A stretch of DNA of 64,000 nucleotides from Octopus vulgaris (lineage: Eukaryota), in the NCBI GenBank assembly GCA_951406725.2, contig OX597818.1, forward strand, positions 44,702,001 to 44,766,000, in the 5' to 3' direction. Positions within the stretch are counted from its first letter, which is position 1, and the number at the start of each line of letters is the position of its first letter. Position numbers and translations under genes: made by a program. This document shows, one piece after another, positions 5,840 to 57,737 of the stretch. Under the pieces are notes generated by a model. It had not been told where the DNA came from and did no database searches. It saw only the letters and a list, made by a program, of their open reading frames with translations.

Positions 5840-6718
5840 TTATAGTGTTAAGACAAGTACAGATTCCAAGCTGTTACCATCAAAGAACCTACTGTATGCC
5901 TGATATTTGAGAAGTGTCAACTATGTAACTAGTTCAATGATGCATGATAGAAAATGTAGGTGTTGAGCATGGCGAAAGGTAAAATAAACAGCAGAGAAAG
6001 GTAAGGTGAGACAAAAGAGTAAAAATAAAGTGAGATGAGAGAAACAACAGATTTATAATTAAGCATGCAGAAGCACACCTGATTTTTTTATACATTTGTG
6101 TCAGTCGTACGTCTGTATGAATAAATATCGTGTGATCACGTGATCGGCCAAACTATCGGATGCCATTATACATCACTTGTCACAATGCGCTTTTGCATCG
6201 TTTTCGAATGATGTCATCCCACTGGCTAGGTGAGCAGGTCAACGTCCCCTCTGATCGGAATGTTAGCCCTACCCAGGGTTACCCATTTACAGCTTAGTAG
6301 ACTGAAGCAATGTGAAATGATGTGTTTTGCTTAAGAACCCAATGTGTTGCTCAGCCTGGGAATTGAACCCATAATCTTGAAATTGTGAGTTCAACATCCT
6401 AATCACTGGGCCACATACCTTCATATGCATAAATATAACTTTAAAAAAAAGAAGATAATATAGCCTTGAATATGTTGTATTTAGTTAATCCACATGTGTG
6501 TGTTTGTTTCTTTTAGTAAAAGCCTATTGTATATAATTCACTTATTTATATTAAATAACTTATATGACACATTAACACAAATACATACATTTATGAACGT
6601 TTGTGGGTTTCTATGTATTTGTAGTGCATATATACTTTGTGAATATATCATAACTTTGTTTACCTTTATCTTATATTTTGTATATGTGTATGTGTGTAGA
6701 TGTGTATACACAATATAT

Positions 6719-7098
6719 ACTCTTTTACTTGTTTCAGTCATTTGACTGTGGCCATGCTGGAGCATCGATTTAGTCAAGCAAATCGATCACAGGACTTATT
6801 CTTTGTAAGCCTATACTTATTGTATCGGTCTCTTTTACCGAACCACTAAGTTACGGGGACGTAAACACGCCAGCATCGGTTGTCAAGAGATGTTGGGGTG
6901 ACAAACACATACATATACATACATATACATATATACGATGGACTTCTTTTCAGTTTCTGCCTACCAAATCCACCCACAAGGCTTTGGTCAGCCCAAGGCT
7001 ATAGTAGAAGACACTTGCCTAAGGTTTCACGCAGTGGGACTGAACCACAACCATGTGGTTGGTAAGCAAGCTACTTACCACACAGCCACTCCTGCGCC
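6719..7098 (-). mobile_element. tRNA-derived SINE family A (~380-440 bp, internal TA/TG microsatellite)
   Basis: Head ggcgcaggagtggctgtgtggtaag..ggttcagtccc, tail gtaaaagag. Other copies about 8935-9205+, 9205-9574-, 9980-10380-, 17620-18030-, 19930-20372+, 20880-21306-, 22130-22502+, 23745-24150-, 30070-30430+, 34845-35243+, 45045-45375+, 46948-47310-, 55463-55860-, 61838-62220+. Confidence 0.9.
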
Positions 7099-7154
7099 TA
7101 TGTAAACAAAATATGCAGAATGCATAGAGATACGTAAATATGAAGACAGTGAGA

Positions 7155-7203
<49 letters not shown>

Positions 7204-7362
7204 TGAGAGAGAGAGAGAAAGAGGGAGAGAAGTCAATGGAAAGAATTAAACAATCAAAAAGAAGAAAAAATTGTGAAAATATTTCCACTATGAACAGGAA
7301 ATATGTTTGGAAAAGAAGAACAACCGTTAAATGGAAACCATTCATGTTGTTATCAGTTGCAG

Positions 7363-7431
7363 GTATTTGTGGCTAATAAAGACACAGATGAGAAGATATA
7401 AAACAGAAACAGTCAGCAAGGTAAAATTGCG
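7363..7431 (+). pseudogene. Candidate 69-bp exon (open frame)
   Basis: ttgcag| ... |gtgagc, phase 2-2, YLWLIKTQMRRYKTETVSKVKLR (YLWL resembles the CTLD WIGL strand). Confidence 0.4.
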
Positions 7432-7737
7432 GTGAGCTGGAGTTGTAGTTTTCATTACTGAACACCAATGAAAGGCAAAAAAACTAATTTGAAAAATATA
7501 AACAATTTCTTCTCTCTCATGCTAATAAAAACCTGTTAAAATACTGAAAGTAATGGGAAAATATATAGCAGGAGGTTTCATTTGAATGTAGCTGATATTT
7601 TTTATGTTGCACAAATATGAATATTTATGTTCAGGTAAAGAATAGTTTAACCCTTTCGTTACCATATTTATTTTGAGATGCTCTATGTTTCTTTCAGTTA
7701 CTTTAAATATAACAAAGAATTTAGTAAAATAACTTAG

Positions 7738-8064
7738 AGAGAGACTTAGTAATTTTAATATTTCTATTATTGAAAACAAGTGGATGTATTCCACTGTAAC
7801 TAGGTAAATAAAATCTTCGAACAGAGGGTCAGTAGCGACACCTGCTGGTTCTGACTACGCTGCATTGATAAAGGGCAACAACCCTGAAACATGTCTGCAG
7901 ATGTCTGACTAGCAAGGTGAAGCGGCTGACCTCCCCTGTTCGAAGGTTGTAATGGACGCAGGTTCGTGTCTCATAGCTAGCTAGAGGCGATGGCCTCTTG
8001 GAGCTAATCAGTGACAGCTTTAGTCTTATTTATAGACTGCCATATTAGTATAGCGATAACTATT
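7738..8064 (+). mobile_element. 327-bp retrozyme/Penelope-like insert with 10-bp TSD
   Basis: TSD aataacttag (7728-7737, 8065-8074); internal hammerhead motif enclosed by a long-range stem. Confidence 0.7.
7860..7900 (+). ncRNA. Degenerate minimal type I hammerhead ribozyme
   Basis: CTGCA-TTGATAA-AGGG-caacaa-CCCT-GAAA-CATG-TC-TGCAG: perfect stems I and II, palindromic stem III, two transitions in the CUGAUGA core. Confidence 0.7.
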
Positions 8065-9088
8065 AATAACTTAGTTATCATTAAGCTAGTGTTAAGAACA
8101 TAAATTGTGACTAAGGTTTGGTGGAAGATTTTAATTAAAAACTTATAAAAACAAAACATTTGTACTACAGAGCCAGAGCCGGTTTCAGCCGGGTTGGTAA
8201 CGAAAGGGTTAAGTGGATTTTTGTATAGTTATTTATTTGAAGATTGCTGTGAAGATATATCTTTAGTCAGAGTTGTTGTCATCGATGGGGAAACTGTTTC
8301 TGTAATTAGTTCAATTAAAATATAATGTATCGAAGTTGAATTTGGATTATAAGTAAGTTTCGTTAGAATTAATGGAAATAAAATATAATGTGTGAGAGTT
8401 GAATGTGCAGAACAAGTAAGTAGTTAAACACTTTGACTAATAGCTCAGAGTTCCAGTGTAATAATTTCCCTAGATCAGCGTTTCCCAAACTGGAGCCCTA
8501 GTGATCTCTGTGAGAAGTCAATAGTTTACCAGAGAAAATAGTAATAAATAGGATAATCTGTCTACAAATGCAATTCAGTGTCATTTTTGTGTTTAATTCT
8601 ATATTTGAAATATTTATTATTCATGCATGGCATATTTAGATTTCCATTATCTGAAAAGGGGAGGGGCAGAGCTAACGAGGGTGGAAAAATAATTAGGAAT
8701 TATAGGTACAAGTATAACTGAGTGGTTAAGAAATTTGCTTCCCAACCACTTGATTCCATGCCCAGTTCAGCTGCATGGAACCTTAGACAAGTGTCTTCTA
8801 CAATAGTTCTGGGACAACCAAAGCTCTGTGATGGGATTTAGTTGATGTGTGTGAGTGTGTGTGTGTGTGTTTATGTGTGTGTATATATATATATATGTGT
8901 GTGTGTGTGTATGTGTGTGTATATTTATATACAGGTGTGTGGTAAGTAGCTTGCTTACCAACCACATGGTTCTGGGTTCAGTCCCACTGCATGGCACCTT
9001 GGGTAAGTGTCTTCTATTATAGCCTTGGGCTGACCAAAGCCTTGTGAGTGGATTTGGTAGATGGAAACTGAAAGAAGAAAGACCATCG

Positions 9089-9147
<59 letters not shown>

Positions 9148-9335
9148 ATGTGTGTGTATGTTTGTGTGTCTGTGTTTGTCATCCCCAACATCGCTTGACA
9201 ACCGAACCCAGGACTTATTCTTTGGAAGCCTAGTACTTATTCTACCGGTCTCTTTTGCCGAACCGCTAAGTTATGGGGATGTAAACACACCAGCATCGGT
9301 TGTCAAGCAATGTTAGGGGGACAAACACAGACACA

Positions 9336-9411
<76 letters not shown>

Positions 9412-9572
9412 TATATGACGGGCTTCTTTCAGTTTCCGTCTCCCAAATCCACTCACAAGGCTTTGGTTGGCCCGAGGCTATAGCAGAAGACACTAGCCCA
9501 AAGTGCCACAAAGTCGGAACGAACCCGGAACCATGTGGCTGGTAAGCAAGCTACTTACCACACAGCCACTCC

Positions 9573-9616
<44 letters not shown>

Positions 9617-10601
9617 GTATATGTGTGAGTGTGTGTGAGTGTATGTAAGTTGGTATCTCTTTGTCTTGACATTGTGTGATTGTTGTAAACAAGTGTCACC
9701 ACTATACAAGCAGTGCCCTTCATTTCTAGACATCTGTGATAATATGACCCTACTTGGAAATAGGCAAATGTTAACAAGAAAAGCATCTGGCTGTAGAATA
9801 TATGTTTTATCAAATTCCATCCACCCCATACATTCATGGAAAACTGAACATTAAAACAATGATGATAATATCGGGAATTTTGTCTAAGCAACATCTTGGT
9901 TAAGATGGAATTTCTTAAATCATCTTTGTGATGCCTGGTGGATTTAGCACTGCCAAACCTTTTGAACATTGTTTTACTTTTTTACTCTTTTACTCTTTTA
10001 CTTGTTTCAGTCATTTGACTGTGGCCATGCTGGAGCACCGCCTTTAGTCGAGCAAATCGACCCCGGGAATTATTCTTTGTAAGCCCAGTACTTATTCTAT
10101 CGGTCTCTTTTGCTGAACCGCTAAGTGACGGGGGACGTAAACACACCAGCATCGGTTGTCAAGCAATGCTAGGGGTACAAATACAGACACACAAACACAC
10201 ACACATATATATATATATACATATATACGACAGGCTTCTTTCAGTTTCTGTCTACCAAATCCACTCACAAGGCATTGGTCGGCCCGGGGTTATAGCAGAA
10301 GACACTTGCCCAAGATGCCACGCAGTGGGACTGAACCCGGAACCATGTGGTTGGTTAGCAAGCTACTTACCACACAGCCTATAGAATTTAACTTAATGAA
10401 AAAGAAAGCATAATATAATAAGTTTCACATGGGGGGCCCAGAGATATGGAATGTATTACAAGAGTAAAAAGGTTAGGAAAGGTTGCTTTAGGTAATAACC
10501 TCATTTATCTAAATGAAAATATATAACATAACCACATGAGACAGATTGGAATGTACTAATCTCATTAAAAATCTGCTGAAAGCAACTCCAAGACATGAAA
10601 T

Positions 10602-12399: not shown

Positions 12400-12799
12400 C
12401 TAGCAGTATCGCCCGGCGTTGCTCGGGTTTGTAAGGGAAATAACTATATAAGCATTTTTAGAGATGTAAAGTATAATAGCCATCTCAATATGGCTAACCA
12501 CAAAGGAAGGGGGGGTGTTACTGTAGCATTTTACGTTCTGAGATTTAATGATAAATTTTTAGAGAGTTACTTCCCTTATATATGCCAAAAATGCATTAAA
12601 AATGGGAAAAAATGATGGTAAATTTTTTTTAAAATCGTAAACTCATTGTAGACGCACGCTAATACCCAGAAGGGCTCGATATGGATCACGACTATAAGAT
12701 ACCCGGTTTTGGTTAAACTGCACCGCAAAATGTGGGAGTAGTTAGGAATCTAAATCGTAGGAGACAGACAGCACACAACCTCACTTTTATATATAAAGA
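12400..12799 (-). mobile_element. Non-autonomous Helitron (family 1)
   Basis: Minus strand A|TCTTTATATATAAAA ... cccgagcaacgccggg hairpin ..CTAG|T; no TSD. Confidence 0.85.
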
Positions 12800-39625: not shown

Positions 39626-40442
39626 CTAGCAGAATTGCCCGGCGTTGCTCGGGGCTGAATTGCTTGAAAGTACTGTTAATGATTGCACTGAATTATGATG
39701 ATTATTCAGGCAAATATTGAAATAAGCTTACGGTGGGAGATAAGGACTTAACGCCAAACGTGTGCCATTGCATTGTTTTGGGGGAACCAAATTTCTGATG
39801 AGCATTATAGGGGCACTAACTTTAAGTTTGAGAAAGTGTGGTGGTAGTCCGGGGTGCTCAAAGGAATTGAGTACCTCTATTGGATAGTTGATGACGTCCT
39901 CTGGGTCAGGAGTTGTATCGATAGACTGATATACATCGACTTCCCCAGGAATGAGTTTTAGCATTTCATCATTAATATGGTGAACAGTTTTATTCCTCGG
40001 GGCCAGTATAGCCTTTTTGCCAATCCAATCCATATTCTGATAATTAGCTTGTAAATCTGGGAACACTGCATCTCTGAGATCAGAAGGCGTCTTAACAATG
40101 GTACAAATGGAATCGATGGCAATATTACCATTTTCATCCCCTGGTATTTTGCCTTCGCCAAGTGCAAGGAGGGTGTGAGGAAATGCTGCTGATGTGATAT
40201 TACGTCGCATATGAGCACGCATATTGGTGTGAAGTTTGAGAGTTACTTCCGTTTATTTTAAAAAATATGCATTAAAATGGAAAAAAATGATGGTAAATTA
40301 TTTGTAAAATCATAGACTCATCCTCGATATGAATCACGACTATAAGATACCCGGTTTTGGTTAAACTGCATCGCAAAATGTGGGAGTAGTTAGGAATCTA
40401 AATCGGAGTAGACAGACACACAACCTTTCTTTTATATATAGA
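39626..40442 (-). mobile_element. Helitron deletion derivative retaining part of the RepHel helicase
   Basis: TC...hairpin-CTAG termini; 5' part shared with family 1; contains ORF 39728-40222. Confidence 0.9.
39728..40222 (-). pseudogene. Pif1-family helicase fragment of Helitron RepHel
   Basis: LLALGEG..VFPDL..AILAPRNKTVHHIN..YQSID..YPIEVLNSFEHPGLPPHFLKLKVSAPIMLIRNLVPPKQCNGTRL are Pif1/Helitron helicase motifs; truncated at both ends. Confidence 0.9.
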
Positions 40443-53423: not shown

Positions 53424-56182
53424 TATATATATATATATATATATATATAGCGGCGTACGTACACTCTATTCTCTTATATATATATATGGATGGAAAGATG
53501 TGTATTCCCACGCAAGAAAAAAAATAAAGGAGAATTTGTTTTGGGGTTTGAAAATGCACCTGTATCGCAAAACACGTAGGTGTTTTGATGGGATTCTTTC
53601 ACTTTCCCAAAAACTTTGGTTGGCTTGAGGCTATAGCAGAAGATATATACCCAGAACCATGTAGTTGGAAAGCAAACGTCTTAAGCTCATAGTCACATCT
53701 GCTCCTATAAAAATTAATCCTTGTCATGATAAAATTTCAGTCTGATCCAATGTGATACCAACATAATGCATAAGTGGAATTCAGTTCTGCTATTTCCAGA
53801 GTGCTATTTCTTTGTTTTTTTCTTTGTGTTGTCAATTTACACTTTTGATTTAGATGGCTCTTTTGTTCGTTTAGAAATCAAGGTTTCGTGTTATTAAGGT
53901 ATCATAATGCCTAGTGTTGGAAACATGTGAAATGTACAATTTTTAGTGCTTCTTTTAATACTATTATGACTTATTTTACTGAAATTCTCCTAAAGTTGAT
54001 TCAGAAATCGTATTGTATTGTAGAAGTATTAGTTTGAATATTTATGTGAATTAAAAGCGATGTGTGCATGTGTGTATATGTGTGAGTGAATTATGAGTAT
54101 ATATATATATGTGTGTGTATGTGTGTGAGTGTGTATGTCTATGCATTCATGGAAATGCTTAATTTTCTTTTTTGGTGAGATGTTATTTCATACATTGTAT
54201 GGAAGAGCAAGGAGAACATAAAAAAGCAACTGTGAATGAAATGTAGATTGCCAGTTAGTTTTGATTTATTGCAGCTAGGAAAGTGGTAACAGATAATTTG
54301 TAGTAGTGGACAGAACTGACAAAGTAGATGGTAGCTGTGGATAGAATGAAAAAATGCAATCAAATCAAAAATTCAGTGACTCTTTTTTTCTCATTAATCT
54401 CTTTTTAACAATATGGAGAAAGATTTCGACTTTTAGATATTGCTCTGCTTGAATAGGAAACAGTTTTTATACAAAACATTCAGCATAAAGGCTGGTTGAT
54501 GTCCAACAACAATATTGATACTGTTCAAGTAATGTTGGGTCACTGTAACACAGAAACGACATGTATGGCTTGCCTTTGAATATGGCTATCTGATATGGAG
54601 CGATCAAATGGTCTACCTGATATTATTAAACACTCTGCCTGCATTAAATATTGACTATATTATCCTGATGAGATCTAATAGAATGAAATAGGCACATAAT
54701 TGTCTCTCTTCTGTAAACAAAGGTCATATTTTCTCTTATGCATTTAAATTAAATTTGAGAGAATAATTCTCAATTTCCCATAAATATTTCCTCTTTTCTT
54801 CAGAAGTTGCAAAAAATTGATGCTAGGTTTTTGTTCTCTTCCTCCAGCTTAATAGAAAATTTAATTCATTAAGCATTTTTGATTTATGGCAAATTCCAGC
54901 CATTAGCCCACATAAGTTATTTAGTGTTTCTTTTTTTAAATTTTTACTAAAATTTCATACACATACCATGAATTATGTAGCTGAAAAGCTTGTTTCCCAA
55001 CCACATGGTTTCAAGATTAGTTGCACTGTGTGGCACCCCAGGCAAGTGTCTTTTACTATAATCCCTGGCTGACCAAAGCCTTCTGAGTGAATCTGGTAGA
55101 TGGAAACTGAAAAAATCTCTCTCATATATATATATAGTAAGATAACACTATCACTGTCCTTTTATACATTAACCTCTCACTTGACTCACAGACATTTCAC
55201 CCAGTTCCACTCTCTGCTGAGAGATCTTTGTCTTGCAAGCTATTAGGTAACCTCAATGGTTACCAAGTAAAAAGTACCCAGTGCACTCTGTAAAGTAGTT
55301 AGTATTAGGAATGGCATCCAGCCATAGAAATCAAGCTAAAACAGAAAGCTGGAGCCTGGTACAGCTCTCTGGATTACCACATCCTGCTGAACTGTCCAAC
55401 ACTTGCCAGCATGGAAAACAGATATTAAATGATGATATATGTGTGTGTATGTGTGTGTGTATATACTCTTTACTCATTTTACTCTTTTACTTGTTTCAGT
55501 CATTTGACTACAGCCATGCTGGAGCACTGCCTTTAGTCAAGCAAATCGACCCCAGGACTTATTCTTTGTAAGCCTAGTACTTATTCTATCGGTCTCTTTT
55601 GCAGAACTGCTAAGTTATGGGGACATAAACACACCAGCATCGGTTGTCAAACGATGTTGGGGGAACAAAGATAGACACACATACATATATACATATACAT
55701 ATATATGATGGGCTTCTTTCAGTTTCTGCCTACCAAATCCCCTCACAAGGCTTTGGTCAGCCATAGGCTATAGTAGAAGACACTTGCCCAAAGTGCCACA
55801 CAGTGGGACTGAACCCGGAACCATGTGGTTGGGAAGTAAGCTACTTACCACACAGCCACTTTGGATCCACATTCACTTGTATGGTTATTGTCAGCACTGT
55901 AATATTCTTGTCAGCATTATTATGGTGTGGCAGTATTTTGCGTCTTATTATCTTTGACTCATCTATCATGCTCTTGCTGATAGCTCCGCAAGACAATGAC
56001 TTTGAAATGTCTACCTTGATGGTAACTGGAACTCATATATAACACGTAACTGACCCTGACTCCAACTAAGAACTCATACAATGGCTCTACTACTACTGAC
56101 CTCCTACAACAACCAGGTGTCTGACTTTATAGTGGCTGGGCCATACCACTTTGTCATCTAGGAAGGGAGTACCATTTTCACT

Positions 56183-56253
<71 letters not shown>

Positions 56254-56349
56254 TGAACCCAAACAAAGAAGAACAAACAAGAAAAACAATAACACGAGGA
56301 AGTGGTACAAGTACTGCATTATCAGACACTCAGAAAAGGAAGGAAAGAG

Positions 56350-56390
56350 GACTTAACGTTTCGAGCCTTTGCTCTTCTTCAGAAATAGAG
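56350..56390 (-). ncRNA. Minimal hammerhead motif (intact core, weak stem I) in a Penelope-like fragment (56255-56455)
   Basis: CTGAAGA-A-GAGC-aaag-GCTC-GAAA-CGTTA with AACGTT palindrome. Confidence 0.6.
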
Positions 56391-56772
56391 GAAAGTTCAA
56401 ATGAAGGGAAGACGGAGGAAGAAAATCACCAACGATACACATACGGCTACATTTTGAATATAGGCACAGGCGTGGCTGTGTGGTGAGAAGCTTTCTTCCC
56501 AACCACATGATTCCAAGTTCAGATAGATATGTGTGTATGTATGTAAATATGTGTATATTTGTGTCTCTTTTGTTTTGATATTTCTTGACGCAAAATGAAT
56601 GCCATTTATTTTCACTACTCTGAGAAAACATGTCTAGCGATAGAGAAATATTATATCTCTTGGAAACAGGCAAAGGTTTGTGGTAAGAGGGGCATCTGGC
56701 CATATAAAATTTACCTTGATAGATTCTGTGCAACTTAATGCAAGCATGGTAAAATGGACGTTAAAACGATGG

Positions 56773-57152: not shown

Positions 57153-57737
57153 GTAAGGGGCATGTGGGTGGTGTTTTGTTGCTGTTGTTGTTGTTGCAGT
57201 TTCACCCTTTTGATGCTGGCACATCTGAGACTGCCCCTGACTTCCTGTTCAAAAGAATTATCTAAATTAAAACGATCCATCAAATTTTCTTTTTAATTAA
57301 TGTGCTAAACACCAACTTAATAACAAAGTTATTTTATTAAATTCTACTTTATTTTTGAAATTAGTTGAAACACAGGCTGTGTATTTCTCCAGAAATATGG
57401 TAACAAAATTGGTTAAGCCCATGTTAGTTCTAATCAAGCTTACCTGTGATCAGAGATATTCCAGTTATGACCATCCTGTCTGTTTACCTATGTCCTGGGA
57501 ATCCAAGACCAACTTATTCAATGATGGGTTCTTTTTTAAGATGGTGTAGCAGGATTTGAGGGAAGTTTGGCTGCTATTTCTTTAAGGTTGACTGACTCTA
57601 CAGAGGTCTCTCATTGGCTCACTCACTGAATGCCAGTGTTCTTATAGATAAGATGACAAAATAAAAAATGGAAGTTGATATACAGTATTGCAAGCATGCT
57701 CATGCTCAATTAATGCCAGCATTGATACAAGAATATT

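Follow-up and report, generated by a model that had tools for sequence, protein, structure and literature searches.

The 64,000-nucleotide stretch of Octopus vulgaris DNA analyzed here (hereafter the window) contains a 327-bp structured element at positions 7738–8064, which raises the question of what this element is and how it got there. The same sequence, AATAACTTAG, borders it at 7728–7737 on the left and at 8065–8074 on the right (forward strand), and the initial annotation had read this as a 10-bp target-site duplication inside a piggyBac MITE. We searched the genome for the host MITE (1726 candidates, of which 40 were scored, giving 41 matches) and read 19 other loci, several of which derive from one tandem array. 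All 19 carry the AATAACTTAG site once and then continue directly into the right flank, the site being identical in 7 loci, changed at one position in 11, and changed at two in 1. With a single site in every empty MITE copy, the duplication at the window locus is genuine. Its right copy begins with AATA, four bases that also fit the continuation of the inserted unit, and we therefore describe it as a duplication of 6–10 bp with microhomology. The host spans 7651–8208 including the insert, measures 221 bp without it, has 14-bp inverted ends, and is flanked by TTAA at 7647–7650 and 8209–8212. A TTAA-flanked element with inverted ends is thus present as proposed, while its name is our assumption: we take it to be piggyBac-like from its TTAA and its CCC/GGG ends, as piggyBac MITEs duplicate TTAA and have short inverted ends that begin with CCC. 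A diverged relative of this host (71%) lies at 57265–57408 of the window, and a tandem array of it, with a period of ~251 bp, is found at G000:C2:6.291-6.298 Mb (loci L074–L080).

Within the copy, a minimal type I hammerhead with a U3–A8 core and a palindromic helix III occupies 7860–7900 (forward strand, as for all features of the copy), where it had been annotated, and is predicted to cut after C7895. Stem I pairs 7860–64 with 7896–7900 and stem II pairs 7872–75 with 7882–85; U3 and A8 lie at 7865 and 7870, and the helix III palindrome, ACATGT, at 7889–94. Both stems are well predicted, with pair probabilities of 0.78–0.92 (stem I) and 0.97–1.0 (stem II) in the 327-nt fold, and the fold of the element is stable (z = −6.8, with 0 of 100 shuffles as stable). 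An Rfam search of positions 6000–10000 at E ≤ 5 returned no hammerhead match. The hammerhead sits at the tip of a predicted long stem with arms at 7815–7832 and 7926–7945; this enclosing stem had been noticed before, with a 5′ arm that in fact starts one base further left. The AGAGGC/GCCTCT hairpin, also reported earlier, is predicted at 7983–7998.

The element had been taken for a monomer, which turned out to be wrong. When copies were mapped, the family unit proved to be 360 nt long, made up of the 327 nt of the window copy, a spacer of 31 nt and an indel of 2 nt, so that 7738–8064 is a 5′-truncated single-arm copy (unit positions 32–360) missing 31 nt. As the initial annotation had anticipated, the family is multicopy. 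A genome search with the element gave 2809 first-look candidates, of which 40 were scored, yielding 93 matches, and full-length matches among these 40 candidates are 95–98% identical. Exact patterns, which give lower bounds, found at least 196 hammerhead cores and at least 632 matches to a 26-nt 3′ word of the unit, with none in either reversed control. Head-to-tail tandem copies also exist, with three hammerheads in one locus (L020) and five in another (L219), the window locus being single. A sister subfamily is identical to the unit at 308 of ~360 positions, and similar sequence also occurs in sequencing runs labelled as three further organisms. The window copy differs from the family majority at six positions, none of them within the hammerhead core; a short indel accounts for two of the six.

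We defined non-LTR retrozymes by a non-coding unit of ~150–450 nt with GC below 50%, one type I hammerhead, tandem hammerheads, no LTR, PBS or PPT, and any duplication longer than 4 bp. The octopus unit has a GC content of 42%, one type I hammerhead and no ATG-started ORF above 30 aa; its mapped insertions show no terminal repeats, and the duplication at the window locus is 10 bp. The window element is an ordinary copy in a new family of this already known class. Our literature searches returned no account of octopus retrozymes, or of the GCCAY hairpin described below, and repeat databases may contain these families.

Is the ribozyme dead? The initial annotation had regarded C3U and G8A as lesions of this copy and the copy as probably inactive. 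Among 100 matches listed for a pattern permitting both states, 98 are U3/A8, one is U3/G8, one is C3/A8 and none is C3/G8. In fetched loci, partly picked by U3–A8 patterns, we counted 132 cores, of which 130 are U3/A8 and again none is C3/G8. We then examined covariation in 36 hand-picked sequences of related families, found with patterns that permitted mixed 3:8 states and sufficiently related to inflate the counts. In these, the 3:8 pair is U–A in 22 and C–G in 14, with no mismatches, and 94% of hammerhead positions expected to pair do so, versus 24–53% in slid controls. Nine of the 13 pairs change on both sides, among them the inner pair of helix III and the whole of stem I (five pairs). 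U3–A8 is also described as the compensatory core pair in Schistosoma Penelope-like element (PLE) hammerheads (PMC4209133) and as active in vitro (PMC3088659). Since U3–A8 is the family state, covaries and is published as active, the reading of inactivity by mutation fails; judged from the core sequences, U3/A8 is a known paired swap and not decay. Formally, the other copies do lack CTGANGA, which had been named as grounds for giving up the hammerhead, yet the ribozyme is not refuted thereby because U3–A8 is a compensatory core. A relaxed U3–A8 hammerhead pattern has 2618 sites in the genome (control, 20), and a similar but not identical C3–G8 pattern has 834 (control, 2). Of the two classes of such motifs in this genome, searches that demand CUGANGA thus overlook the larger. 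A U3–A8 hammerhead-like motif was also read by eye downstream of a PLE endonuclease frame (L127:1310–1345) and, if correctly read, may belong to an autonomous PLE using this core.

According to PMC4209133, this hammerhead type needs a second copy to form helix III, so the lone copy in the window is still unlikely to cut itself. When a natural array of 2.6 units was folded at equilibrium, the inter-copy helix III reached at most 2.5% probability. For comparison, only one of nine dimers of Xenopus retrozymes is reported as cleaved in vitro in bioRxiv 10.64898/2026.07.22.740005.

To see how copies are inserted, we mapped 130 loci representing 112 distinct insertions, picked by similarity or exact patterns and hence biased to young, long copies. 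Of these, 46 are single-arm, 61 are two-arm with an inverted 5′ arm, and 5 are complex. The 3′ ends of the arms (n = 168) fall at two fixed points ~59 nt apart, 67 at end A and 77 at end B, with 24 elsewhere; where both ends of a two-arm insertion could be classed, 41 of 44 combine an A end with a B end (p = 8e-10). The window copy ends at end A, and its segment 7738–7770 is the 3′ half of the ~59-nt "tail" between the two ends, end B of other copies mapping near 7770. The 5′ ends are scattered round the unit. Of the 31 segments in the 3′-word set, 17 run across the ribozyme cut site, whereas starts less than or equal to 10 nt from it occur in only 3, so cDNA synthesis does not stop there. TA-rich 3′ flanks, in 74 of the 112 insertions, point to (TA)n targets. 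The family thus combines 5′ truncation, partial tandems, an inverted 5′ arm, a one-sided tail, and AT-rich or (TA)n targets. Inverted arms and a one-sided tail are given as PLE hallmarks in PMC8557442, and the PLE enzyme studied in PMC11167929 cuts AT-rich DNA on both strands in vitro and starts at two internal RNA sites bounding the tail. Because the ends of the copies match these marks, we consider it likely that a Penelope-type enzyme pastes them, in line with the non-LTR retrozyme-type family with Penelope-like ties that had originally been suggested.

These counts also bear on the alternative that the family is a SINE or satellite in decay, with a dead ribozyme, and owes its spread to LINE enzymes or to DNA-level recombination. 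The 10-bp duplication of the window copy is LINE-like, but an exact duplication of at least 7 bp that is not pure TA is found in only 5 of 46 single-arm insertions; a poly(A) end is absent, and the U3–A8 core is a covarying family state. Moreover, the 3′ ends of the family are internal and of two complementary kinds, and its starts are circularly permuted; these are not LINE features. We find this explanation hardly credible.

If a Penelope-type enzyme is at work, what does it copy? We compared passes of the unit within and between insertions, with the caveats that pairs are not independent and that seven segmentally duplicated loci were dropped. At eight polymorphic sites, mismatches amount to 10/224 (4.5%) between tandem passes and 15/360 (4.2%) between inverted arms, versus 3365/10381 (32.4%) between loci. 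Rare variants are shared about ten times more within an insertion (tandem, 37/296; inverted, 47/403) than between loci (155/14296). Overall, tandem passes and opposite arms of one insertion differ by ~3.3%, mostly by unshared changes that we read as later decay; a sister-subfamily array with five hammerheads has no substitution between its four complete units. Since passes in one insertion agree at polymorphic sites, it is likely that one template is copied repeatedly per insertion, and an RNA circle accounts most simply for the shared variants. Among the sequencing runs listed as carrying the unit, none is labelled as RNA. The unit-to-unit joint occurs in contigs of four runs that we guessed to be RNA and also in unlabelled runs resembling DNA, so it says nothing on circles.

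The template of the same PLE-driven family could instead be RNA transcribed from genomic arrays as a linear multimer that is never cleaved, or repeats could arise by template jumping, leaving the hammerhead largely a passive passenger. In PMC11167929, hammerhead mutants have no effect on insertion in vitro and uncleaved RNA is the main substrate. A related family (L295, L314) has spread with a U3–G8 wobble core and, together with those mutants, this means that hammerhead cleavage may be dispensable for spread. The lack of a pile-up of 5′ ends at the cut site and the weak predicted dimer helix fit a linear template as well. We nevertheless regard it as unlikely: random 5′ truncation would be expected to shorten linear arrays with each generation; five-pass arrays without substitutions exist; tandem passes share rare variants far beyond the between-loci rate; the hammerhead core covaries across families; and related mussel and axolotl elements yield abundant circles (PMC7229834).

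We next looked for an autonomous partner. PLEs are abundant in the genome (16435 candidates, including intact frames of 727 and 980 aa), but we found neither the unit nor its end module in any PLE family that we examined, and their tails differ from the ~59 nt of the unit. The 727-aa frame (L205:161–2344), with no Pfam match at E ≤ 1, belongs to a family whose two fixed ends lie ~71 nt apart; it was rejected as partner for its other hammerhead and ends. A very young intact family with the 980-aa frame (L370–L372; copies ~99% identical) has a long 3′ UTR, a hammerhead near its 3′ end and inverted arms; its hammerhead and ends are again others, and it was likewise set aside, as was an old PLE family adjacent to L136 that is unlinked to the unit. 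A published Octopus Naiad motif is matched in the genome with one mismatch, but the best profile match of the end module to two decayed Naiad loci had E = 9.7, which is not significant. Elsewhere in the window, the minus strand of 56150–56400 likely carries the 3′ end of a PLE: a C3–G8 minimal hammerhead lies at 56382, and (TA)n comes after it.

This search touches on a further explanation, that the unit originates from an autonomous PLE as its solo pseudo-LTR (pLTR) and its copies are 5′-truncated stumps. Minimal U3–A8 hammerheads were first described in PLE pLTRs (PMC4209133), the insertion anatomy is identical, and at L017:2021–2035 a unit abuts a 5′-truncated PLE fragment in opposite orientation. 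That junction fits a chimera and equally an independent insertion with an 8-bp duplication, and the L017 PLE family was discarded as partner, having its own different hammerhead end and no unit at 29 other loci. In the sampled loci, the unit was not found joined in sense to an RT + GIY-YIG ORF or its UTR; nor did we see a PLE ORF in two same-strand unit pairs (C2:52.93 Mb and C1:68.12 Mb) with spacings of 3.9 and 5.6 kb. Finally, 62 of 168 arms are longer than 370 nt (up to 944), and arms exceeding one unit run on into another unit, not into UTR or ORF. Such a pseudo-LTR origin is therefore very improbable.

Our preferred answer, which we hold with reasonable confidence, is that a non-LTR retrozyme, a non-coding hammerhead repeat of 360 nt, gave rise to the window element, a 5′-truncated genomic copy likely pasted by a PLE enzyme from a single, probably circular RNA. 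In brief, tandem unit copies would be transcribed, two hammerheads would pair through ACAUGU and cut, and the cut monomer would be ligated into a circle. A PLE reverse transcriptase–endonuclease dimer would nick AT-rich DNA on both strands, and cDNA would start at two internal sites ~59 nt apart, one per strand, comparable to what PMC11167929 describes for another PLE in vitro. Synthesis would pass the ribozyme site and halt at random. At the window locus, one arm would have begun at end A via the AATA microhomology and halted 31 nt before completing a unit. The resulting copy is most likely a dead end because it has no second hammerhead.

How does the family compare with known systems? Like the metazoan non-LTR retrozymes of coral, Mytilus (350–390 bp) and axolotl (330/350 bp) described in PMC7229834, it has a non-coding unit of similar size (~360 nt) with 42% GC and a single type I hammerhead, and it shows tandem copies, a self-paired fold and a duplication longer than 4 bp. 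Unlike them, it has a U3–A8 core and a helix III that is a bare 6-nt palindrome, and most of its copies are partial tandems scattered through the genome and bearing inverted arms. It shares its proposed dependence on a PLE enzyme with the animal retrozymes viewed as non-autonomous PLE derivatives in bioRxiv 10.64898/2026.07.22.740005. That study argues from co-occurrence and pLTR homology in four invertebrates (three insects and one anthozoan, no mollusc), whereas the octopus case is made from insertion anatomy; we found no pLTR homologous to the octopus unit among the PLE families examined. The compensatory core and dimer-type architecture recall the Cercyon PLEs of Schistosoma mansoni, which carry U3–A8 minimal hammerheads (PMC4209133, PMC3088659), but the octopus hammerhead is carried by an ORF-less repeat. 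With Poseidon_Ac and the PLE tail (PMC11167929, PMC8557442), it has in common two internal start sites, AT-rich targets, extension of both strands, a tail on one side and an inverted 5′ arm; it differs by the length of the tail (~59 nt versus the published 30–40) and by the lack of an ORF.

One more feature of the copy extends beyond its family. Motif comparison shows a GCCAY-N6-RTGGC hairpin, common to many families, upstream of end A at 8039–8054; in the window copy, one of its pairs is broken by a G>A change at 8052 that is rare (4 of 208 passes). This hairpin followed 9–18 nt later by (TA)8 has 7407 matches (1929 forward and 5478 reverse, the reverse ones overlapping among the matches listed), versus 10 in the reversed control. 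In fetched loci, dominated by the window family, it lies 174–179 nt past the hammerhead in 112 of 122 cases. It occurs in at least seven sequence groups, whose cores are C3–G8, U3–A8 or U3–G8. Four of its pairs are fixed by the search pattern; the free fifth is U–A in 11, C–G in 4, U–G in 1 and unpaired in 3. A second hairpin, CTC-N5-GAG in the tail, was dropped, being only 46% and 43% paired in two registers. The GCCAY hairpin is a candidate start signal, and it could be a DNA-level site instead because it is self-complementary. We tentatively suggest, as a possibility that may well prove wrong, that at least seven octopus retrozyme groups share a start module, with the hairpin ~13–16 nt ahead of the first reverse-transcription start site (there being two), and that a single dimeric Penelope enzyme reads it to copy one circular RNA simultaneously from the two broken DNA ends: a SINE-style cis signal for circular-RNA retrotransposition, carried by no autonomous element examined.

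In the literature consulted, the way in which animal retrozyme RNAs enter genomes is a matter of proposal. The copy at the window locus is ordinary and probably inert. The octopus family offers countable scars (complementary ends and single-template passes) and a candidate cis signal, and PLE-in-trans and circle models are therefore testable with an existing in vitro system. The additions made here are a verified empty site, single-template counts and the shared hairpin. The same GCCAY hairpin is also present at 12444–12550 of the window, in a short two-arm fragment of another family. This fragment sits in an element ending in CTAG, presumably a non-autonomous Helitron, and a 174-aa frame on the minus strand at 39731–40252 resembles what we take to be a Helitron/PIF1-type helicase fragment.
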